From the IMG/VR virus record IMGVR_UViG_2563366934_000004: a stretch of DNA of 49,224 nucleotides; one strand, 5' to 3'. Under the pieces are notes generated by a model. That model searched no databases. It saw only the letters and a program-made list of their open reading frames with translations, and had not been told where the DNA came from. The stretch is from a virus (Duplodnaviria > Heunggongvirae > Uroviricota > Caudoviricetes). Shown in pieces: positions 33,722-43,595 of the stretch; position 1 is the first letter of the stretch, and each line of letters starts with the position of its first letter. The translations under genes and the position numbers were made by a program.

Positions 33722-33749
33722 AATAAAAAACCCGCTCGGCGGCGGGTTG
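33722..33749 (-). terminator. tR'-like rho-independent terminator downstream of PR'
   Basis: Minus strand CCCGC-CGCCGA-GCGGG followed by TTTTTTATT, about 60 nt downstream of the putative PR'. Confidence 0.6.
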
Positions 33750-33788
33750 TAGAAACTCTTCTAACGTCAGGCATAAAAAGCCCATCAT

Positions 33789-33825
33789 TATGACGAATTT
33801 ACCACAGATTCCGGAAAAATCAACC
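33789..33825 (-). promoter_or_regulatory. Putative late promoter PR' (with qut region)
   Basis: Minus strand TTGATT (-35), 16-nt spacer, TAAATT (-10), directly after Q stop; resembles recalled lambda PR' (TTGACT ... TAAATT). Confidence 0.4.
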
Positions 33826-33828
33826 TTG

Positions 33829-34650
33829 TTACCTAGTTACCTTTTTTAACTGCCGCTCAGCCCATGCTTCTTCAATATCAAACCGGGTCACCAGCGCATC
33901 ATAGAATTTCTTAACTGTTTTTTCCCATGACGCGCGTGTTATCTGGTTTGTCACCTCGCATATAGCATTAAATGCCTCCGTTGATGGTAGTCTTTCATAG
34001 CCACGACCACCACAACGCTGGCAGTCTCTGATAACAGGCATACCACGTTTTACCGACTCTTCACGGTGAATGGCGACACCACGCCCACGGCAATCCTTAC
34101 AGGCGGTGGAAACCTCACCCTTTCCGCCACACTCCGGACAGGCAACTTTTACCACCTCCCTGACTTTTTTCCATTCTTCCCAGTAAGACGGATACACACC
34201 TTTCGTACACTTTGCCCATACCGGCGGCTTACCATCCGGATACTGGACCTTGTTTGTAAAAACTACGCTTTCAATAAATTTTTCCCCATAGCAACAAGGG
34301 CACTGCTTTTTACTCGCTGCGCTGCGGGCATAATCCTCAAAAGCGTACGAAGCCATAATGCGCATCACTACCGGTTTTATTTCTGCCGGAAGTTTTCTCA
34401 ACGCCGCCACACGATCGCACCGACTGAGTGCATAATCTGCCAGTAATTCTGTTGCCCGCGCCCTGTCATTCATACTGATGCCCATTTTCCCCAGGAACGC
34501 AGAAAACCCCATCTCAGCCCGATTCTGTGTCATGCCCTGCGCGGCCATCACATCAGTGATACTCAGCGCATCTTTTGACGTTGAAGCCGATGCATCGGTC
34601 AGGCAAGGGGATTTTGGGGAGTAGTATTTCGGTAAATCTTCCAGTTTCAT
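33829..34650 (-). CDS. quuQ: Late antiterminator Q (Zn-finger type)
   Basis: 273 aa, ATG 34648-34650; several CxxC pairs (CPCC, CPECGGKG, CKDCRGRG, CQRCGGRG); located directly upstream of PR'/tR' and lysis genes. Confidence 0.75.
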   Translation of the reverse strand: MKLEDLPKYYSPKSPCLTDASASTSKDALSITDVMAAQGMTQNRAEMGFSAFLGKMGISMNDRARATELLADYALSRCDRVAALRKLPAEIKPVVMRIMASYAFEDYARSAASKKQCPCCYGEKFIESVVFTNKVQYPDGKPPVWAKCTKGVYPSYWEEWKKVREVVKVACPECGGKGEVSTACKDCRGRGVAIHREESVKRGMPVIRDCQRCGGRGYERLPSTEAFNAICEVTNQITRASWEKTVKKFYDALVTRFDIEEAWAERQLKKVTR

Positions 34651-35021
34651 TTTTTGACCTGCTCTTCATGCATTATGGGGTAAATCTTCACCCCCATACG
34701 TCCACCAGATACTGGCTGACCACGAACGATATTGATTTCATCAAACTGCTCATCGTCCATTAACACTCCCGCATGCGTCAGCGCATCCAGCGGTGCTTTC
34801 AGGATATTGTCCAGGTCGCGACGACGCTTATCCGGTGGCTCTGCAATCACCTTTATCGCCAGCCTTCCGGACAGGCTTAATTTCAGCCGCTGCTGGCGAA
34901 CAATAAGCGCCACAGCCCGGCGATAACGCTTTCCCTCCTCCGAGATAAAATATGTGCTGCCACGGCGTCGCCAGTAAGTGTTCACCGTCGGCGGGTAAGG
35001 TAAAACCAAATCTATGAGCAT
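34647..35021 (-). CDS. rusA: Holliday junction resolvase RusA
   Basis: 124 aa; MLIDLVLPYPPTVNTYWRRRG... typical RusA N-terminus. Confidence 0.85.
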   Translation of the reverse strand: MLIDLVLPYPPTVNTYWRRRGSTYFISEEGKRYRRAVALIVRQQRLKLSLSGRLAIKVIAEPPDKRRRDLDNILKAPLDALTHAGVLMDDEQFDEINIVRGQPVSGGRMGVKIYPIMHEEQVKK

Positions 35022-35033
35022 CAGTCACCTCTT

Positions 35034-36083
35034 TTACCCAAGCACGCCAGTTGCAAAGGCGTGATCAAGAAAACGAAAAATTAAATCAACCTGAGAACCA
35101 TGCTTTTCTTCGAACGCCAGCGGATCCGCATGAAGCTCGTTGTGATGCTCCCGACACAGCGGTAGCGTGAAAATATCGTGAGATTTTGTCCCCATTCCGC
35201 CCTCACCATGACCAATCAGGTGATGGGGATCGTCGGCTGGCTTACCACAACACGCACACGGCTGTGTCTTCACCCAGCGTGTGTATTTCTCGTTAACCCA
35301 GCGGCGACGTTTAGGTCGTTTCATAAAAGATTCCGGAGACTCAGGATCAACGGCAATGCTGACCACCGTCTTTTCCTGTGGTGGGTTCTGTTGCTGGTGG
35401 GCGTGAGGCAGCGGCGCAAGATTTTTTGTGCGCTGTTTCAGTATGCTGGTGGCGGTCTGCTCTCCCGGTACGATGTCGCTTTCACGGTACATTGAGCGGA
35501 TTTTTTCCGCACGCAACCCCAGCGAACGACGTAATACCGCTTCCGGTAGCGCGTCCGCCACCTGATTGCGGACCGCCCACCAGGATAATTCAGCCAGAGA
35601 TAATTCACGCTCCTGCGTACCGCTTATTGCGTGACGGATGACGTCAATCACCCATGCTGTCAGATTTTGTTGAGCAAGCAGCTCCAGTGATTCCGATGTC
35701 TGGTCACGCAGTTGGTTGTCACAGTGCCAGCACAACACCATTGCGCCGGTACCATAACGGTGAATGACTGTTTCAGTGTGATGGTAATCGCCATTAGGCC
35801 ACTGGCAGGATGTAACATGACGTAATAGCCAGTCGGACAATGCGCCAACGCCGCCAGCAGCACGAATCACCCGTTCGTTACTAAAAAACGGCAGCAATGT
35901 TTTGTCTTCCGCCAGCGGCTGGCGAACGGCAGGAACGACTCCGGATGGCAGATTACGCATGCTTTTTGGTTCCGGTTCCACCAGCACTCGAGGATTATGA
36001 AATATCTGTATGGATTCACGGCCCGGCTTAAGGACCACCAGCCCAAGCTCAGGCACCAGAACAGGTCTAAGTAATACCCGCAC
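35034..36083 (-). CDS. ydfU: DUF968-family prophage protein (YdfU-like)
   Basis: 349 aa if started at GTG 36081-36083, adjacent to the upstream ORF stop; C-terminal HNH-like CxxC...H motifs. Confidence 0.7.
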   Translation of the reverse strand: MRVLLRPVLVPELGLVVLKPGRESIQIFHNPRVLVEPEPKSMRNLPSGVVPAVRQPLAEDKTLLPFFSNERVIRAAGGVGALSDWLLRHVTSCQWPNGDYHHTETVIHRYGTGAMVLCWHCDNQLRDQTSESLELLAQQNLTAWVIDVIRHAISGTQERELSLAELSWWAVRNQVADALPEAVLRRSLGLRAEKIRSMYRESDIVPGEQTATSILKQRTKNLAPLPHAHQQQNPPQEKTVVSIAVDPESPESFMKRPKRRRWVNEKYTRWVKTQPCACCGKPADDPHHLIGHGEGGMGTKSHDIFTLPLCREHHNELHADPLAFEEKHGSQVDLIFRFLDHAFATGVLG

Positions 36084-36084
36084 G

Positions 36085-36363
36085 TTACCTCCAGATGCGT
36101 TGCTGGAAAGTGCGGGACGCACGTGGTGGGCGGTCGGAATAAGGCAGCCTGACAGAGATTATCCAGTGCCGATAGTCGAGACTGAGAGCTTTCTTAACCT
36201 CGAACCCGCGCCTGCGGTAAGAATGAATCAGCCATTCGGCCTGTTCTGCAGTGCATGGAGGGTGCTGGAACCATTCAGACTTGAATGCGTGAGAATACCG
36301 CCCGTGCGTGCAGGCAAGAACGGGCGAATTATCAGAATTGTAATATTTTGCGTTGCGTGCCAT
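36085..36363 (-). CDS. Hypothetical small prophage protein
   Basis: 92 aa, ATG 36361-36363; stop sits 1 nt from the GTG start of ydfU (translational coupling). Confidence 0.45.
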   Translation of the reverse strand: MARNAKYYNSDNSPVLACTHGRYSHAFKSEWFQHPPCTAEQAEWLIHSYRRRGFEVKKALSLDYRHWIISVRLPYSDRPPRASRTFQQRIWR

Positions 36364-36429
36364 CGGTTTTCTCCGGTGGCACGGTGTTACTCAGCGGGAG
36401 TTCAGCCCCGCGCAAGATTGTAGATGAGT

Positions 36430-36681
36430 TTATTCTCCTGAAAAAGCAGAAAAGCCAGCTTTTATTCCGATCTCTTTCAATGCCTGTAATGAAGTGACAA
36501 ACTCACCTTCGCGCAAGATAAATCCGTCCGTGACCCGAGCATCCACAAAATTAATTAACGCAGCCCCATTCTTTCGCAAACACATAATGCGGTAATGACT
36601 AACAAGATTTCCATTTTCAACGCACACAGCATAGAGGCCATCTTCACAAAAAATTTTACGCAGTTCTTCGATGTTCATCAT
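36430..36681 (-). CDS. Hypothetical small prophage protein (Rem-position)
   Basis: 83-aa ORF; assignment by position relative to hok/ydfU only. Confidence 0.4.
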   Translation of the reverse strand: MMNIEELRKIFCEDGLYAVCVENGNLVSHYRIMCLRKNGAALINFVDARVTDGFILREGEFVTSLQALKEIGIKAGFSAFSGE

Positions 36682-36802
36682 CAGAATCCTTCCGGATAAT
36701 TAGCTCTCCCCTTTAAGGGACCATCCCTCTTATCCCTGCGCGCTACTTAAGTATTTTTGATTCTATTCCGGCACCGTCCAGAACTTCAAACGCGTTGAAA
36801 AT

Positions 36803-36833
36803 AAAAACAAAAACCCGCCGAAGCGGGTTAAGT
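36803..36833 (-). terminator. Rho-independent terminator after hok
   Basis: Minus strand CCCGC-TTCG-GCGGG followed by TTTTTGTTTTT. Confidence 0.6.
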
Positions 36834-36897
36834 GCGGGTGCGTTGAGGATGCCTGCCACATCAGAGGTGGCGAGGGATTTCTCCCTCGCCGGGTCTC

Positions 36898-37053
36898 TTA
36901 CTCCTCAGGTTCGTAAGCTGTGAAGACAGCGACCTCCGTCTGGCCGGTTCGGATTCGTACCTCGCAGAGGTCTTTCCTCGTTACCAGTGCCGTCACTATG
37001 ACGGTTAAACAGATGACGATCAGGGCGATTAACATCGCCTTTTGCTGCTTCAT
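36898..37053 (-). CDS. hokD: Hok-family type I toxin (HokD/Gef-like)
   Basis: 51 aa MKQQKAMLIALIVICLTVIVTALVTRKDLCEVRIRTGQTEVAVFTAYEPEE; in-frame upstream extension corresponds to the mok-type overlapping frame. Confidence 0.85.
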   Translation of the reverse strand: MKQQKAMLIALIVICLTVIVTALVTRKDLCEVRIRTGQTEVAVFTAYEPEE

Positions 37054-37795
37054 AGCCTGCTTCTCCTTGCCTTTCGGCACGTAAGAGGCTAACCTACATG
37101 TGTCTAGCATAGATATGGCCTCAGATTAATGTTAAGCGTCTTGCCGGACGCGTAATGTTAACTGGGGCTTTTCTCTATCTGCCTTTGGTGTTGATGCCCG
37201 AGGCAGATAGCCTCAAGCACCCGCAGCAATTCTACTTAACTACCGTTACCTCGCCAATATGAAATCAATCAGAAAGGTGATCCATAAGAACAACAGCAAG
37301 ACAATAAATTGCCATTACAGCAGCAATAGCCAGCGCACATTTGAGAACCAGCACCACAACCTCCTGTATTGGACGTACACCAGTCCTGATAAATATGAGG
37401 CTGTCTCGTCAGTGATTCAATACAACTACTGGGTATAGTTTCTATGATTTTGTTCTGTGGAAATGGAAAACAGCAACCAGTCACGACCAGCACTTCTTTA
37501 AACATGCCAAGTCACACGCAAGCCAACATTATAGTTCCCTTTGAGCGAGCAGATGAAGCTAGCAAAAATATTGATCACTTAGGATGCATTACTAACGTTG
37601 CTATGTGTTAACGAACAGGGAGTGGGTCATCAGCATAAATATTTATGCAGTAGGTTTCTTTTAGGACTAGATTAATCAAAAACATTTAGATAAAATTATA
37701 AAATCAAGAAATTGGTGGCAATTAATCTTTAATTGTGCCAGCTGAATTTCGTTATTATAGAAGATTAGCTTTTTTTTGAATATTTGGAGAGTAAA

Positions 37796-38491
37796 ATGTT
37801 AGAACCACCAAAGAGTTATAATGAAATGTTGCCTATGCTCCATAAGGCGACTTTTATTACTACATTTATATTTTACCTATCATTAGTCATTTATGGCTAC
37901 ATGCCATTGGTTGGCATTAATGCCAAGTATATCCCCCCCGTTAAAGACTACGAGGAATTTATTAAATGGATATTAACCTTTGGCATATTACCAATTGCAT
38001 CTTCAGTTTTTTGGTCAGTAATTAGTGGAGCTTTAGATCTACATAATAATGTAGCAAAAATTATTGGAATAAGGAAGATGTGGGATAGTCATTTAATTAT
38101 TAAACCATTAGCAAAAATTGCAGGCGTTACGAGAAAATTAACTACTGATGAATCTCACAAGGTAATGAGTAAACTGTATTACCCAGAAGTTAAAGAGTTA
38201 AAAGACAAACATTACGTTGAACTTTTCTGGAACAAAGTTTATTACTTTTGGGTTTTCTTTGAACATACAGTAATCGCATTTGTTACTATTTTAATAATAA
38301 GTATCGCCAAATTAACAAATATATTCTCTGTTACTGGCTCTTTAATTAATCTTTGGTTGTGGATTATTTCTCTTGTCGCATTTGACTTCCTTATTTTCAT
38401 AGCATCAGTTAAACCAAGAACAGAAAGCCAAGTAAGACAAATACCTGATAGCAAAATAAAAGAATTCTTTAACAATAACAATATTTTTTAA
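37796..38491 (+). CDS. Integral membrane protein (about 4 TM), unknown function; AT-rich cargo
   Basis: 231 aa from ATG 37796 (GGAG RBS 6 nt upstream); four strongly hydrophobic segments; AT-rich codon usage. Confidence 0.6.
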   Translation: MLEPPKSYNEMLPMLHKATFITTFIFYLSLVIYGYMPLVGINAKYIPPVKDYEEFIKWILTFGILPIASSVFWSVISGALDLHNNVAKIIGIRKMWDSHLIIKPLAKIAGVTRKLTTDESHKVMSKLYYPEVKELKDKHYVELFWNKVYYFWVFFEHTVIAFVTILIISIAKLTNIFSVTGSLINLWLWIISLVAFDFLIFIASVKPRTESQVRQIPDSKIKEFFNNNNIF

Positions 38492-38497
38492 ACGAGG

Positions 38498-39157
38498 TTG
38501 ATTTTGAATTATAAAATAAATGGAATAAACATACGTTCAGAAAATGCAGCGAAACCGCACACTATGCCATCTAACTATCTCTGTAAACAGATTGAAAGCA
38601 CTAATAAAAATGGCAATGCCCTTGATTTTGGATGTGGAAAACTTAGATATTCAGAACAATTAGTAAATAAATTTGAAACTGTGACATTTTTAGATTCCAG
38701 AAGACAACTAGAAAGAGTGCAAATTATCAGAGGTGTACAAACCACGATTCCAGATTACGTGATAAATAACTATAAGAATGCTAATATTGTTTCTTATGAA
38801 AATATAGATAAAATAACAAATCATTATGATTTCATACTTTGCGCAAACGTGCTTTCCGCAATTCCATGTGAATCCACAATTCACAAAGTCCTCAGTGCGA
38901 TTAGAGAATTATTAAAGAGTGATGGTGAAGCACTGATTGTCAATCAATACAAAAGTTCTTATTTCAAGAGGTACGAGAGCGGTATTAAACATTTGCATGG
39001 GTATATATACCAAAACTCTCGTAATGCTTTCTACTATGGTTTATTAGATGTGGATACTGTAAGTAAAATATGCTCAGATAATAATTTAGAAATAATAAAA
39101 TCATGGAGCAAAGCAGGTAGTTCATATGTGGTTGTTGGTAAACATATACATATTTAG
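38498..39157 (+). CDS. Class I SAM-dependent methyltransferase (small, Rossmann-type)
   Basis: Motif I LDFGCGKL and downstream FILCANVL motif; starts 7 nt after the membrane-protein stop (exact start uncertain: TTG 38498/38504 or ATG 38564). Confidence 0.6.
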   Translation: MILNYKINGINIRSENAAKPHTMPSNYLCKQIESTNKNGNALDFGCGKLRYSEQLVNKFETVTFLDSRRQLERVQIIRGVQTTIPDYVINNYKNANIVSYENIDKITNHYDFILCANVLSAIPCESTIHKVLSAIRELLKSDGEALIVNQYKSSYFKRYESGIKHLHGYIYQNSRNAFYYGLLDVDTVSKICSDNNLEIIKSWSKAGSSYVVVGKHIHI

Positions 39158-39471
39158 TTTATTTCAACAAATTATTAGAAAGAGTGATTTGCTTGTTAAT
39201 CATTAGCTCGGCAGTGCCGGATCAACATGACCCTGCCACTTAGGCCATTGCCGGTTTACCTACTTTTGTAAGGTTCAGCATGAAGTTTTTATATACTCTT
39301 CCTAATATCAATAGTGATGCTCGCTTATGTTAGCTGCTTCTTGTACATAGTAGCCTTCTCCGACAGTACTGCAATGAGCGGAGAGTAAAAGTCGATAAAC
39401 AATAAGGAGGTTCACAATAAATATTTCTCGGTGAAACTTTCAAAGCATTCTCTGTTTTGCTAAATCGACAA

Positions 39472-40371
39472 TTATAAATCAACAACATTTAGTGTTATAT
39501 CAATATTATTTAGCCTTGCAATCTCTGATGAATCACTTGCTATTTTAGCTTTTAATTTATCAATATTAATCATATCTTCATGGCTTATATAAACCATATC
39601 ACCTTGGTTAACTTTAGATTTGTTCACTATGGCTTGAATAACAGACAAATCATCCATTACACCTCTCATAAATTTCACCATGCTTTGATCTTTGAAGTCA
39701 GATATCGATTTTGAACGTTGCTTACGTTGAATTGTTCCTTTTGTAATTACTTCATTAATTTCTTTTAAACCAGTGAGCATATCAGACAGACTGCCTTCGC
39801 AACTCATCCGATGTTTTATTGCATTGCGATTAATAATATTGAGTATAATTTCGAGTGAATCTTTATCACTCCATGGATGTAATGATGTATAATCATGATG
39901 GCGTCGAATGGCGTCAATCATATCCTGGACCATATCTTCATCTGCTTTATCGCAAAGTTCATTCACGAAATAGCTGGGGTCGATTATTTTACAATAACTT
40001 GGAGTTAGGTATCTTGAGGCTTTACAAAAACCAAAAATATATAAAGTAGAGTATTTATCTTTCAGACTCTCTCCTATTTCATTTGTTTCCTCAAAAGATT
40101 CGATAGTTTTTTTAATTTTTGCTGGACTTGCATTCGTAGTAACTTGAACTGCTATCATGTTTTTATTATCAGCTAAATCAATGGCGGGAAAATTAACTTT
40201 AATCTGATTCATGTTTACCAGTTCACCCATTTTCAGCGCGCGAAACATAAAGATGGTCAATGACTCAATTATTCTTTCCATGTCATGAAAGCCTGCCTGT
40301 TTGCGTTGCGCGATATAAAGCTGGAGTAGTGCAATATCACTCTGTAAGTTTCTAATAAGTGGATCAATCAT
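39472..40371 (-). CDS. Hypothetical 299-aa protein, N-terminal region possibly SMEK-like
   Basis: ATG 40369-40371; AT-rich; N-terminal motif NFPAIDLADNKNMIAVQVTTN recalled (unverified) as characteristic of SMEK-type N-terminal domains; convergent with the membrane/MTase pair. Confidence 0.55.
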   Translation of the reverse strand: MIDPLIRNLQSDIALLQLYIAQRKQAGFHDMERIIESLTIFMFRALKMGELVNMNQIKVNFPAIDLADNKNMIAVQVTTNASPAKIKKTIESFEETNEIGESLKDKYSTLYIFGFCKASRYLTPSYCKIIDPSYFVNELCDKADEDMVQDMIDAIRRHHDYTSLHPWSDKDSLEIILNIINRNAIKHRMSCEGSLSDMLTGLKEINEVITKGTIQRKQRSKSISDFKDQSMVKFMRGVMDDLSVIQAIVNKSKVNQGDMVYISHEDMINIDKLKAKIASDSSEIARLNNIDITLNVVDL

Positions 40372-40623
40372 AGCTAATAATCCTTTTCAATGAAGCTGGA
40401 GGTGTGTTTAACTATTAGTTAAATTTCTATTTTTATAGAAACAAGCTTTACAACTTCATCAAAGTTTCTCAAATCCTAATCCACTTTGCAAATCCACTAA
40501 CCATGCTGAATGCTTTCTGTTGTTAAACATATCCGCTGCTGGCACCAAGCAGACAAACACACTAACTCTACCCTACTCCACAAAAGAGCCAATCAATATC
40601 TGAACTAATAAACTTTAATCTCA

Positions 40624-41046
40624 TCACTTCAATAAATATCGAGCATTTCCCTGATAGAATGCTAGTATGCGCTGCATAACTTCACTCTTCCGGCACTCGC
40701 GACAGATTATGTTCTGACGCCTGTCGTAGCGACGTATTTCTCCGTCAGGTAATGACCAGATAAGGTCCGGATCAACCGCAGATGGTTCCTTCAGCTTTGC
40801 CCTTGAGAGCTTTTTACGGGCATTTTGCCAGTCCTTACGCGCCTGTTCAGACGGGAATAACCCGTAACCAGAGTTGTATACATCGCCGCTGGCAACCAGC
40901 TCTCTTGCGAGAACGCTCATCAGATATCTTGTCGCACCTGTCTTGACTTCCAGTTGCCGTAACGTCTCACGACCGCTCTGGCGCACGAGTTCCACCACCT
41001 GCCCTTTAATTTTTTCCCGCTCTTCTTGTGTAAAAACTTTTGCCAC
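40624..41046 (-). CDS. Hypothetical protein downstream of replication initiator
   Basis: 140-aa ORF, probable GTG start; contains CRECRK; function unknown. Confidence 0.45.
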   Translation of the reverse strand: MAKVFTQEEREKIKGQVVELVRQSGRETLRQLEVKTGATRYLMSVLARELVASGDVYNSGYGLFPSEQARKDWQNARKKLSRAKLKEPSAVDPDLIWSLPDGEIRRYDRRQNIICRECRKSEVMQRILAFYQGNARYLLK

Positions 41047-41086
41047 AAGTCCCCCTTAAAATTACCTCATGACCTGAAATCAAAAC

Positions 41087-42052
41087 TTATCCTCTGAAAC
41101 CAGGCGGAATTTCTGTATCCGGTTCAGAAATATGATTAACACAACGCTGTACAGGTGAACGCCCCAGGCGGATGACCAGTTCGTCCCATTTTTCGCGGAG
41201 CTTTGACGGGCTCATGATGTTTTTTACCCAGAACGGATCCCGCTGTACCCGACCAAACATTTCACAAATTTGTCTGTGGCTTCTGCCATCCAGCATCCGC
41301 ATTGTGCGCACATCATTGGCCCAGACAGTCCAGTTAGGCTCTTTTGGTCGCATGATCTCGCCATCATCACTGGCGGCCTGTTCGTAGAGACCCACGATCC
41401 GCCCCCATATCCACTGCGCACACGCCAGATCCTCCTGGCTACCCCACTGGCGTTTTTTCGCACTAAACACAACTGCGCCAGGGTGCCGGATTAAAAAATC
41501 CTGTTCAGCCGTCTGCGGGTCCGGTTGCGAAGCTTCCGGACGAAAAGTGTTTTTATTCTCTGTAGTAATCTCTGTTGTATTCTCTGTAGGATCATCGGGC
41601 CATTTTGACCCGATGACATTGGGTCGTTTTGAACCAATGGAGCGTTTCATTTTGACCTCTTCCATCGTGTCATTTTGACCTGATGGAGCGGCGCATTTTG
41701 AACCGATGGATTCGCTCAATTTGCCATCATCTAAAAGCTCGCTCCCATAGTTAATCGTGTAGAAATTGGTCATATCGCGCTTTGATTTATTGAGCTTTTC
41801 ACAACGCAAGAGCCCCAGCGTTTTCAGACTTGCAAACGCGCGCTTTAACGTTGACTCTGACCAGAATGGGAACTGTTCCAGCCATTGTTCCGTTGTGTTG
41901 TAAATCCAGCGAACACCATCACATTCCATGCCGGAATTGGTATCTCTCAACCAGTAATGCAACTGCTGCAACACAATGGCTTCATTTAAGCCAATCTTCA
42001 TCGCAAGCTGTGTGTTTATAACCAGTGGGCGTTCAGCAAAAAGAAGGCTCAT
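41087..42052 (-). CDS. Replication initiator (lambda O-like architecture, iterons inside gene)
   Basis: About 321 aa from ATG 42050-42052 (MSLLFAERPLV...); internal SIGSK repeats encoded by the DNA iterons; position downstream of cro-like dicC. Confidence 0.6.
   Translation of the reverse strand: MSLLFAERPLVINTQLAMKIGLNEAIVLQQLHYWLRDTNSGMECDGVRWIYNTTEQWLEQFPFWSESTLKRAFASLKTLGLLRCEKLNKSKRDMTNFYTINYGSELLDDGKLSESIGSKCAAPSGQNDTMEEVKMKRSIGSKRPNVIGSKWPDDPTENTTEITTENKNTFRPEASQPDPQTAEQDFLIRHPGAVVFSAKKRQWGSQEDLACAQWIWGRIVGLYEQAASDDGEIMRPKEPNWTVWANDVRTMRMLDGRSHRQICEMFGRVQRDPFWVKNIMSPSKLREKWDELVIRLGRSPVQRCVNHISEPDTEIPPGFRG
41592..41712. repeat. Origin-like iteron array (5 copies, 23-24 bp period)
   Basis: CATTTTGACCCGATG (41601), CGTTTTGAACCAATGG (41625), CATTTTGACCTC (41648), CATTTTGACCTGATGG (41671), CATTTTGAACCGATGG (41694); followed by a more AT-rich stretch. 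Confidence 0.65.
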
Positions 42053-42554
42053 AATTCCATCCAGCTTTTTGTTGGTATTGCTGTCGATACGCAAGTTTGA
42101 AAGCAATTGCTTTTTCTATAAGTTCGTCAGTTTCACGATCCACTACGGCAGGATCAGCAAAAAGCAGTCCGGACTCCACCACATCGCCATATTCTTTGTT
42201 TAACCCGGCGATCATGTACGTGATGCTTTTTCCGTCACTAATTTCACGATACAACCTGAAATCATTAATCCGGATAGCCTCCATAATTGCAGGCACTAGC
42301 GCCGTGAACTTTTCACGCTTATCCCTGGTGTCGATAGCCTTCCAGCGTTCGAATATCTTCACTCGATTAACGCCAAGCGCTCGCTGATCAACCGCGCCAC
42401 CTTCATCTGTGACACGCTGAACATCGATGTTCGGGCGCTCTTTCAAAGCCCAGAATGCTTCAGTGATTAATATCGTCGCCTGCTCCTGTGTCATTCCTGG
42501 TCGACATATCCAGGCATCCAGAGCCTCACGAGCCTGTTCAGGAGTGATTTTCAT
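42033..42554 (-). CDS. Hypothetical early-region protein (between cro-like and replication genes)
   Basis: 173 aa, ATG 42552-42554; overlaps start of the O-like gene by about 20 nt. Confidence 0.5.
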   Translation of the reverse strand: MKITPEQAREALDAWICRPGMTQEQATILITEAFWALKERPNIDVQRVTDEGGAVDQRALGVNRVKIFERWKAIDTRDKREKFTALVPAIMEAIRINDFRLYREISDGKSITYMIAGLNKEYGDVVESGLLFADPAVVDRETDELIEKAIAFKLAYRQQYQQKAGWNYEPSFC

Positions 42555-42765
42555 TGTTCAACCGCCCCGCCCGCTTCGTCTTACGATATTCGTCATAAAC
42601 CTTGGGATCATACAGAAGCTCGCCGCCAGATGCCTCCTGTAGACGCATCGCGCGACCTTCAGGAACTAGCTCTTGCCATTGAGAAACAGCAGATGGGTCA
42701 ACGCCAGCAGCTTTCGCTACTTTGGCTTTCGTACCGTAAAAATTAATTACGTCTGATTTAAACAT
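42538..42765 (-). CDS. dicC: Cro-like regulator DicC
   Basis: 75 aa from ATG 42763-42765 with GGAGG RBS; ...LVPEGRAMRLQEASGGELLYDPKVYDEYRKTKRAGRLNNENHS; divergent from dicA. Confidence 0.8.
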   Translation of the reverse strand: MFKSDVINFYGTKAKVAKAAGVDPSAVSQWQELVPEGRAMRLQEASGGELLYDPKVYDEYRKTKRAGRLNNENHS

Positions 42766-42842
42766 CGCACCTCCAATATTGAGTTTTCTCAATGCTAATC
42801 ACTCAAGGAATCTCAAGTCAAGGGTTATTAAGATATCTAAAT
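42766..42842. promoter_or_regulatory. dicA-dicC divergent promoter/operator region
   Basis: 77-bp intergenic between divergent repressor genes; contains palindrome AGATATCT within TTAAGATATCTAAAT. Confidence 0.4.
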
Positions 42843-43250
42843 ATGAACGAGAAAACTTTAGGTCAACGCATTAGAGAAAGACGTAAGCAGGTAGGCTTAA
42901 GTCAAAACGGTTTAAGCAAAGCTGCTGGCGTATCTGGCTCATCAATTTCATTATGGGAAAGTGACCATACAGCCCCGCGCGGGCAAAATTTGCATCGCCT
43001 CGCCGAGGTATTGCAATGTTCACCAACCTGGATACTGTTTGGCGACGAGGACAAAACACCAGCTCCCCCTGTTTCACTCGATAGTACCCTAGACTTATCG
43101 GAAGATGAGTTAGAGATGCTGCGTTTGTATCGCGCACTTCCTAAATCAGAGCAACAAGCACAACTCAGCGAACTCCGCGCCCGCGTTGAGAATTTTAATC
43201 GCCTGTTCACCGAGCTATTAGAGGCTCGCAAACGCAACAAGCATCAATAA
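42843..43250 (+). CDS. dicA: Repressor DicA (XRE-family HTH)
   Basis: 135 aa from ATG 42843; HTH region and VLQCSPTWILFGDEDK...LSELRARVENFNRLF match recalled DicA. Confidence 0.9.
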   Translation: MNEKTLGQRIRERRKQVGLSQNGLSKAAGVSGSSISLWESDHTAPRGQNLHRLAEVLQCSPTWILFGDEDKTPAPPVSLDSTLDLSEDELEMLRLYRALPKSEQQAQLSELRARVENFNRLFTELLEARKRNKHQ

Positions 43251-43442
43251 TCATCCCTTCACAAAATTTTAAAGCCTTACATTTCAATGTATTGGCTTTA
43301 TCTTGCGCCAATACTTGAGTTTTCTCATCAAAAAACCTTGACGAAAAATAATGAGAAAACTAAATTACCTCCATCAACACACCGCACGGTGTTCTCCGCA
43401 AACAGTTCCGCTACCCCGGCGTTAAGGGGAAATGAGGTCAGC

Positions 43443-43595
43443 ATGGATACTATCGATCTTGGCAACAGCGAATCTCTGGTATGTGGCGTGTTCCCCAACC
43501 ATGACGGTACGTTCACCGCGATGACATATACCAAAAGCAAAACGTTTAAAACCGAATCTGGCGCGCGTTGCTGGTTAGCCAGAAACACTGACTGA
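43443..43595 (+). CDS. ydfA: YdfA-family small protein
   Basis: 50 aa MDTIDLGNSESLVCGVFPNHDGTFTAMTYTKSKTFKTESGARCWLARNTD; GAGG RBS. Confidence 0.8.
   Translation: MDTIDLGNSESLVCGVFPNHDGTFTAMTYTKSKTFKTESGARCWLARNTD

Follow-up and report, generated by a model that had tools for sequence, protein, structure and literature searches.

An AT-rich cargo island of a lambdoid prophage that probably combines a Kunado-like ymfE-ymfD pair with a separate SMEK nuclease-domain gene

What does an AT-rich, three-gene island in a lambdoid prophage encode, and do its genes form a single system? We addressed this question in the window, that is, the whole 49,224-nucleotide (nt) stretch of DNA of the IMG/VR virus record IMGVR_UViG_2563366934_000004 (Caudoviricetes). 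An initial annotation, made from the letters of the DNA, had recognised in this island a membrane protein with four transmembrane segments (4-TM), a small S-adenosylmethionine (SAM) methyltransferase and a convergently encoded protein of 299 amino acids (aa), and had put the three forward as a candidate novel anti-phage or exclusion module. In the reading that we favour and hold to be fairly probable, the island joins two accessory modules, each mobile on its own, in a variable lambdoid cargo slot, and both are most likely anti-phage. One is a pair related to ymfE-ymfD of the e14 prophage, the other a gene for a SMEK-domain protein. The features of the island are as follows.

37575-40531, no strand assigned: the AT-rich cargo (GC 0.323), which fills the hokD-DUF977 slot of a lambdoid prophage.
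37632-39240, plus strand: module 1, the ymfE-ymfD-like operon block (promoter region, two genes and ~80 nt of 3' flank), delimited by the span over which a pair-only Enterobacter allele aligns.
37796-38491, plus strand: ymfE/Kunado-like inner-membrane protein of 231 aa with 4 TM segments and a conserved cytoplasmic three-helix insert at ~80-135, assigned from homology to K-12 YmfE, an AlphaFold2 (AF2) model and hydropathy.
38504-39157, plus strand: ymfD-like class I SAM-dependent methyltransferase of 217 aa (219 aa from an alternative TTG at 38498), assigned from YmfD homology, Pfam and the RefSeq start.
39241-40531, minus strand: module 2, the SMEK gene with its own flanks, missing from pair-only alleles and present in the diverged trio allele L062.
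39472-40371, minus strand: 299-aa SMEK-domain protein, assigned from its open reading frame (ORF), full-length homologues and an AF2 model with a predicted local distance difference test score (pLDDT) of 83.9.
39952-40371, minus strand: N-terminal SMEK domain (putative Mrr-like PD-(D/E)xK nuclease), residues ~1-140, assigned from Pfam, NCBIfam, PADLOC and a PDB profile match.
39475-39939, minus strand: C-terminal helical domain, residues 145-299, specific to the family.

The compositional contrast that first drew attention to the island is real. In 500-nt sliding windows, the GC fraction was 0.29-0.34 at ~37,400-40,500 as against 0.45-0.55 on either side, and the block as a whole (37,575-40,531) has a GC fraction of 0.323, compared with a mean of 0.505 (standard deviation 0.051, minimum 0.390) for every other stretch of 2,957 nt in the 49-kb sequence. 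The three ORFs were also found where they had been placed: 37796-38491 on the plus strand (231 aa), 38498/38504-39157 on the plus strand (219/217 aa) and 39472-40371 on the minus strand (299 aa).

The identity of the plus-strand pair came from a database homologue named ymfD, which pointed to e14. There, ymfE (234 aa) is directly followed by ymfD (221 aa), and the two lie next to lit. The window membrane protein is 60% identical to K-12 YmfE over 230 aa, full-length and without gaps (E 2e-108), and a hidden Markov model (HMM) built from the YmfE family scores it at 385 bits; the methyltransferase is 68% identical to K-12 YmfD over its full length (E 2e-113). Besides the two-gene order and these identities, the loci share the 4-TM layout and all invariant polar residues, and both are AT-rich prophage cargo adjoining a second defence-type gene (GC 0.323 here vs 0.346 at e14 ymfD-ymfE-lit). 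They differ in setting: the window pair occupies a lambdoid hokD-DUF977 slot and has a convergent SMEK gene as its neighbour, whereas the e14 pair sits at the int-proximal end beside a divergent lit.

This homology connects the pair to a reported anti-phage protein. According to a September 2026 preprint, deleting hns in K-12 unmasks ymfE-dependent resistance to T5-like phages, and the Keio ymfE deletion restores infection in the delta-hns background (bioRxiv 10.64898/2026.09.05.749240). In the same work, ymfE cloned alone with its native promoter protected against T5-like phages of differing receptors, adsorption was left unblocked, and H-NS bound and compacted the lit/ymfE locus. The authors gave YmfE the new name 'Kunado', suggested that it is a superinfection-exclusion protein blocking DNA injection, and proposed that neighbouring defence genes are co-regulated by H-NS (bioRxiv 10.64898/2026.09.05.749240). 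We found the name in this one preprint only. The statement in the initial annotation that the three genes fit no named defence system hence does not hold for the pair, which is homologous to YmfE-YmfD. The island does not represent a new kind of system in this respect: its YmfE-like protein is a new member of the Kunado family with a partner, YmfD, already known from K-12. The anti-phage assays concern the K-12 protein, and with 40% sequence divergence the phage range of the window variant may differ.

To define the pair as a unit, we retrieved 107 further loci from metagenomes and IMG/VR by means of the methyltransferase and binned them by its identity to that of the window (~130 loci were sampled overall). 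The counts were as follows.

Methyltransferase identity of at least 95%: YmfE-like 4-TM ORF directly upstream in 20/22 loci; SMEK gene downstream in 22/22.
Methyltransferase identity of 70-95%: YmfE-like 4-TM ORF directly upstream in 15/15; SMEK gene downstream in 8/14.
Methyltransferase identity of 45-70%: YmfE-like 4-TM ORF directly upstream in 5/5; SMEK gene downstream in 0/6.
Methyltransferase identity below 45%: YmfE-like 4-TM ORF directly upstream in 25/39; SMEK gene downstream in 0/25.

The pair is thus intact in 40 of the 42 loci with a methyltransferase identity of at least 45%. Both exceptions fall in the closest bin: in one, the ymfE-like gene carries a 1-nt frameshift, and the other is a truncated copy without homology upstream of the methyltransferase; two further copies in this bin, still counted as pairs, carry ~1.2-1.3-kb insertions. 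In distant pairs, the stop and start codons of the two genes often overlap. The pair occurs without SMEK in diverse settings: directly beyond ogr/delta where P2-like prophages of Enterobacter and Providencia end, behind replication genes O and P in a lambdoid prophage of Enterobacter, at the end of a Cronobacter prophage, and in e14 next to lit. It was also present in an integron-like cassette array of Vibrio cholerae among ParDE and Phd-type toxin-antitoxin (TA) genes (L018, 1-10651) and immediately after Hachiman (HamA and helicase) in Pseudomonas (L021, 386-5334); the upstream proteins of these Vibrio and Pseudomonas loci are 42% and 39% identical to the window membrane protein, respectively. 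One pair-only allele (L051, in a lambdoid prophage of Enterobacter) matches the window over precisely 37,632-39,240, at 82%, and no further, and we therefore marked the seam between the modules at 39,240. Collectively, these loci establish ymfE-ymfD as a deeply conserved two-gene operon that is independent of SMEK.

The membrane protein matched no Pfam, NCBIfam or PADLOC family, and no copy was found in deposited phage genomes. Four hydrophobic segments and a confident AF2 model (pLDDT 87, predicted template modelling score 0.80) bear out its description as a 4-TM protein. In the family alignment, the invariant residues are H83, N84, K88, R93, W96, Y129, H139, Y140, W145, W152 and E156, and they cluster in the three helices inserted between TM2 and TM3 and where TM3 begins. 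With its 12 lysines and arginines, the insert is predicted by the positive-inside rule to be cytoplasmic, on the same side of the membrane as the soluble methyltransferase. The ATG at 37796 is preceded by GGAG 7 nt upstream.

Several cassettes that are otherwise ~100% identical have a disrupted ymfE-like gene, the lesions being a 1-nt frameshift, ~1.2-1.3-kb insertions, or copies of IS5, IS1A or ISApl1; in one cassette of this kind the SMEK gene is frameshifted (L142; L145, with the insertion at window-equivalent ~38108; L156, at ~37935; L146; hits H2, H138, H142 and H143). Such repeated disruption hints at a fitness cost of the cassette genes when expressed.

The second gene of the pair encodes a class I methyltransferase of non-DNA type, as had been proposed from its LDFGCGKL motif. 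Methyltransf_12 (35 bits, cut-off 30), Methyltransf_23 (34.2, cut-off 27) and TehB (24.4, cut-off 20.4) all scored above the Pfam cut-offs. In an alignment of 17 family sequences, motif I (LDFGCGKLRYS) and D66-S67 are invariant, leaving the SAM site intact, and further invariant blocks read NAAKP, NVLSAIPC and NQ--SSYFK. The DNA-methyltransferase motif (D/N/S)PP(Y/F) is absent from this alignment, and no DNA-methyltransferase family of Pfam or NCBIfam was among the hits. The protein does not reach the level of a TehB equivalog: the NCBIfam TehB models gave 28-29 bits against cut-offs of 218-303, and just the generic Pfam TehB domain passed. Its profile matches in the PDB are weak (PKMT2, a protein lysine methyltransferase, 4e-4; TehB, 2e-3) and point to no particular substrate. 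The gap between the two genes is 6 nt if translation starts at TTG 38498, or 12 nt from the RefSeq TTG at 38504, whose GAGG is better positioned. In the K-12 studies, ymfD goes unmentioned in the Kunado preprint, whose screen of e14 deletions hit lit and ymfE only (bioRxiv 10.64898/2026.09.05.749240); a separate paper reported that a ymfD knock-out has no growth defect and that ymfD is not solely responsible for N6-methyladenosine (m6A) in mRNA.

We then turned to the convergent gene. The likeness of its product to SMEK-domain proteins, suggested in the initial annotation from short N-terminal motifs, proved right, and the protein belongs to the NCBI-named SMEK-domain family: SMEK_N of Pfam (PF21941) scored 80.3 bits (E 1.6e-22, cut-off 27) and SMEK_N of NCBIfam (NF033859) 106.4 bits (E 4.9e-31, cut-off 30). 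The PADLOC model for a restriction endonuclease associated with prokaryotic Argonaute (pAgo) matched the N-terminal domain only (E 1e-20); a search for the origin of the model name 'PNTD1/PNTD2' gave nothing relevant. A profile of 24 SMEK family members matched PDB entry 26bh_D ('Mrr domain from Kordia jejudonensis Mrr-APAZ pAgo') over residues 20-138 with E 4.2e-12. NFPAID, Q-x-T and a downstream K are common to the family and this structure, and the invariant residues E36, D65, Q76, T78 and K85 are also present in the solved Kordia domain. The order of secondary-structure elements in the model fits an alpha-beta-beta-beta-alpha-beta core, but the motif reads Q-x-T rather than (D/E)-x-K. SMEK has been described as the Mrr-like PD-(D/E)xK effector nuclease of one short Argonaute clade, with AspBHI named as its closest nuclease homologue (SPARDA preprint), and the Kordia SMEK-APAZ/pAgo complex has been cited as an active guided nuclease. 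The 299-aa protein, previously regarded as a possible sensor, is better called a nuclease-domain protein.

The C-terminal half of the SMEK protein is helical in the model, and its invariant residues include P166, D169, R182, E192, G193, K221, D271 and K274. An exhaustive search of 1.84 billion representatives returned 50 hits for this domain, all limited to the same 287-320-aa architecture. Fold searches with the model of the SMEK protein yielded no nuclease match, and generic helical-bundle matches only for the C-terminal half. No Pfam hit to APAZ or another family was obtained in this half; the PADLOC and PDB matches cover residues ~8-146 only. Beside the SMEK gene lie the methyltransferase and DUF977 genes, and no short pAgo gene was found there. 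Compared with the Kordia system (clade S2B), with which it shares the homologous N-terminal domain including NFPAID, Q-x-T and the downstream K, the window protein thus has neither APAZ nor a nearby pAgo gene, so its activation cannot depend on a guide. Instead, its putative nuclease domain is followed by a helical domain specific to the family, and the two make up a fixed, stand-alone protein of ~300 aa with no conserved partner. Mrr-type and Type IV enzymes such as AspBHI offer another comparison, drawn partly from general knowledge. Like them, the window protein is a single polypeptide that joins an Mrr-like core to a second domain and needs no cognate methyltransferase; unlike them, it carries the nuclease domain at the N terminus, in reversed order, and the fold searches recognised in its second domain no fold for binding DNA or reading modifications.

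Full-length homologues of ~300 aa were found in Enterobacterales, Pseudomonas, Vibrio, Xanthomonas, Burkholderiales and Bacteroidota; in deposited phage genomes, SMEK_N gave a partial match only, in a Klebsiella prophage-derived record. At the 23 SMEK loci other than the window, ymfE/ymfD-like genes were present within 6 kb in none (0/23), and an all-against-all BLAST of 528 neighbouring ORFs from 24 loci revealed no recurring neighbour. The neighbourhoods contained a Lamassu-like cluster with AAA_15/AAA_21, SMODS with S_4TM, Abi_alpha, SLATT_5, reverse transcriptase, Fic, HNH and an SMC-like ATPase, as well as integrase/resolvase islands, TA genes and plain housekeeping genes. Viewed locus by locus rather than with a statistical proof, these neighbourhoods suggest that the SMEK gene is a small mobile defence-type gene. 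A literature search found no paper testing a stand-alone SMEK protein.

Two side observations concern the SMEK loci. The gene is often directly upstream of, and co-oriented with, a defence-type module that differs from locus to locus (L055, 6001-8981; L023, 6001-8045; L014, 6001-7755; L010, 6001-8700; L048, 6001-9498); these modules are SMODS with S_4TM, Abi_alpha, a 219-aa ORF with SLATT_5, or AAA_15/AAA_21, and no one partner recurs. A 3-kb contig labelled Streptomyces sp. NPDC088196 (L022) carries an enterobacterial-type SMEK gene at 87% identity and is probably assembly contamination.

How do the two modules relate? Among 5,426 complete E. coli genomes, a ymfED-like pair was present in 434 and SMEK in 152; 146 carried a near-identical cassette and 283 the e14-type pair only. 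A diverged trio with the same layout was found in a different lambdoid backbone in strain YZMc3-1 (L062). It aligns to window positions 37,639-40,543 as one segment of 2,938 nt at 83.1%, intergenic regions included, and its three proteins are 85%, 80% and 83% identical to those of the window. Where SMEK follows the pair, it is always convergent, across a gap of 314-397 nt. The three trio alleles co-diverge, with protein identities of ~100/100/100, 91/85/89 and 85/82/83%. SMEK is absent from all 31 pair loci with methyltransferase identities below 70%, and pair-only as well as SMEK-only variants exist at 79-85% identity. The trio is a composite limited to a shallow enterobacterial clade and inherited as one 2.9-kb block. 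On the most economical reading of these alignments, the SMEK gene would have joined the ymfED cassette once in an enterobacterial prophage lineage, after which the composite moved and diverged as a block. Of the module initially proposed, an anti-phage or exclusion role remains the best reading; its unity as one three-gene system does not stand, since the pair and the SMEK gene are each widespread alone. An obligate three-gene defence system was ruled out by the absence of ymfE/D from all 23 SMEK loci and by that of SMEK below 70% methyltransferase identity.

The co-inheritance of the three genes nevertheless invites a functional explanation. The trio may be a layered unit kept by selection, in which the Kunado-like pair acts as first-line membrane exclusion and the SMEK nuclease as a biochemically independent second-line effector (abortive infection or DNA degradation), much as ymfED has the protease Lit beside it in e14. 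The uninterrupted 2,938-nt block at 83.1% in a different backbone would fit this idea, as would the presence of a convergent SMEK gene in 22/22 and 8/14 loci at methyltransferase identities of at least 95% and 70-95%, the co-divergence of the three proteins, the junction of ymfED with another defence gene in e14, and the H-NS co-regulation of adjacent defence genes proposed in the preprint. We nevertheless consider the layered unit rather unlikely. Adjacency in one cargo block accounts for co-inheritance without any shared function, pair-only alleles occur at equal divergence (L051, L053 and 6/14 loci at 70-95%), SMEK variants at 79-83% identity lack the pair (L023 among them), SMEK is missing from all 31 loci below 70%, and just three trio alleles were sampled. 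A coupling of another sort, in which SMEK acts against DNA and the methyltransferase shields the host by methylation of either the DNA or the nuclease, would make the island a restriction-modification-like (R-M-like) or toxin-immunity system. The adjacent, convergent arrangement of nuclease-domain and methyltransferase genes recalls many R-M systems, and PADLOC gave a weak match of the methyltransferase to mad2 (E 9.7e-5). The methyltransferase, however, lacks (D/N/S)PP(Y/F) and matches only small-molecule and protein families (Methyltransf_12/23, TehB, and the protein lysine methyltransferase at E 4e-4), and its conserved partner is the membrane protein rather than SMEK. SMEK occurs without such a methyltransferase in 23/23 other loci, and the methyltransferase without SMEK in e14, P2-like prophages, Vibrio and Pseudomonas. 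With this motif absence and co-occurrence pattern we rejected the R-M-like reading, which we regard as highly improbable.

It could also be argued that the island has no anti-phage role, the pair being a moron for lysogenic conversion or metabolism (e.g. a TehB-like detoxifying methyltransferase with a membrane partner) and SMEK an unrelated selfish or regulatory gene. The TehB score above the Pfam cut-off (24.4 vs 20.4 bits) points in this direction, as do the annotation of SMEK homologues as 'regulator' in some sources, the ymfD knock-out without a growth phenotype and the lack of a PADLOC model covering the membrane protein. We judge this quite improbable: the K-12 homologue of the membrane protein protects against phage when cloned alone, the NCBIfam TehB equivalogs score at 28-29 bits, far under their cut-offs of 218-303, and both modules reside in prophage hotspots or defence neighbourhoods (the ogr-side end of P2, Hachiman, Lamassu-like, CBASS-like and TA arrays). 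The composite of two separate, probably anti-phage modules remains our preferred reading.

How might the two modules of this composite act? By homology to Kunado, the 4-TM protein of module 1 would most likely exclude superinfecting phages after adsorption. A block to DNA entry was proposed for T5-like phages, and it would extend to the 60%-identical window variant if function follows homology. Small inner-membrane proteins encoded by phages and prophages, including T4 Imm and Sp, P22 SieA and HK97 gp15, block incoming phage DNA after adsorption, which is the mechanism proposed for Kunado. The cytoplasmic methyltransferase, presumably co-transcribed, appears to be an evolutionarily obligate partner of the membrane protein. 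Because the conserved polar insert is predicted to face the cytoplasm, the side of the enzyme, we infer that the methyltransferase acts on or with the membrane protein, or else that its target is a component of the envelope or of the phage. The enzyme probably modulates or broadens the activity without being required for the T5 phenotype. Module 2 may be a single-gene nuclease effector whose C-terminal domain senses or gates its activity, in an abortive-infection or restriction-type defence. Because the GC content is low, silencing of the whole block by H-NS is likely, by analogy with the e14 locus. A bolder proposal is that Kunado is a two-component system in which YmfD modifies its membrane partner, a lipid or protein of the envelope, or a component that the phage injects, which would be an unprecedented methylation-dependent superinfection exclusion, and that the SMEK-helical family is a new single-gene nuclease defence serving here as a back-up layer; we put it forward tentatively and do not expect it to be the likelier outcome.

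The apparent orphan three-gene system is thereby resolved into two testable units. The Kunado family spans Gammaproteobacteria and environmental bacteria and is nearly always accompanied by a SAM methyltransferase that the first report overlooked. Newly defined here is a fixed stand-alone SMEK architecture, a compact relative of the short-Argonaute SMEK nuclease, found in defence and mobile regions of many phyla. These results extend current ideas rather than overturn them.

The island occupies a recognisable slot. Window positions 33,723-43,574 are 97.6% identical to an annotated E. coli chromosome, where the gene order is antiterminator, RusA, DUF968, rem, hokD, the three cargo genes, DUF977, replication genes, ydaT, cro and cI. 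The host element is a Qin/Rac-like lambdoid prophage inserted next to ompW. The edges of the block lie at 37,574/37,575 and 40,531/40,532, where homology to a HEPN-carrying prophage ends and then resumes. In other complete E. coli genomes (L059, L060 and L061; hits H81-H102), the hokD-DUF977 interval carries HEPN, NACHT, DUF4209, DUF5677, QueH, alpha/beta-hydrolase or KilA-N/DUF7167 genes, and it is deleted in C41(DE3). The interval is a variable cargo slot with diverse defence-like genes. The presence of HEPN, NACHT, DUF4209 and other genes in the same slot of related prophages therefore supports the earlier argument that the island, wedged between hok and the replication module, sits where accessory cargo is carried. 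The hokD-DUF977 slot of Qin/Rac-like prophages should be useful for mining defence-like genes.

Within the block, a repeat scan returned just short AT-rich two-copy matches and no convincing insertion repeats, and a promoter scan found promoter-like sites at no more than the shuffled expectation. A terminator scan detected none between the convergent methyltransferase and SMEK genes, and RNA structure in the seam region was not significant (z -0.98). A 15-nt direct repeat, TGTTG(G/T)TAAACATAT, at 39133-39147 and 40518-40532 flanks the SMEK module; its right copy coincides with the cargo boundary, and the repeat could mark a past recombination event or, in DNA this AT-rich, be coincidental.

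Two flanking features lie outside the cargo.

37048-37222, minus strand: Sok antisense RNA of the hokD locus on the left flank (Rfam RF01794, 114.3 bits, E 2.4e-26).
40624-41046, minus strand: DUF977 gene on the right flank, the first gene of the replication-side backbone, assigned from its ORF and the RefSeq annotation of the 97.6%-identical locus.

The hokD coding sequence is annotated in the matching E. coli genome, and window positions 36898-37222 form a complete hokD/Sok type I TA locus on the left flank. With the Sok RNA at 37048-37222, the cargo proper starts to the right of Sok. An isrK-like match at 36808-36889 is weak (E 0.014, below gathering) and lies beside a terminator-like hairpin at 36829-36812. 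The ~340 nt between Sok and the cargo (37230-37574) are kept at 93-96% in phages Tritos, Evi and mEp460_ev081 and contain short unannotated ORFs only, being backbone rather than cargo. Finally, in a related prophage of strain MFDS1016424, a part without a match to the window (L001, 1-1102) carries genes for a 'beta family protein' and a 'sce7726 family protein' beside the lysis genes, which are possibly another cargo module.

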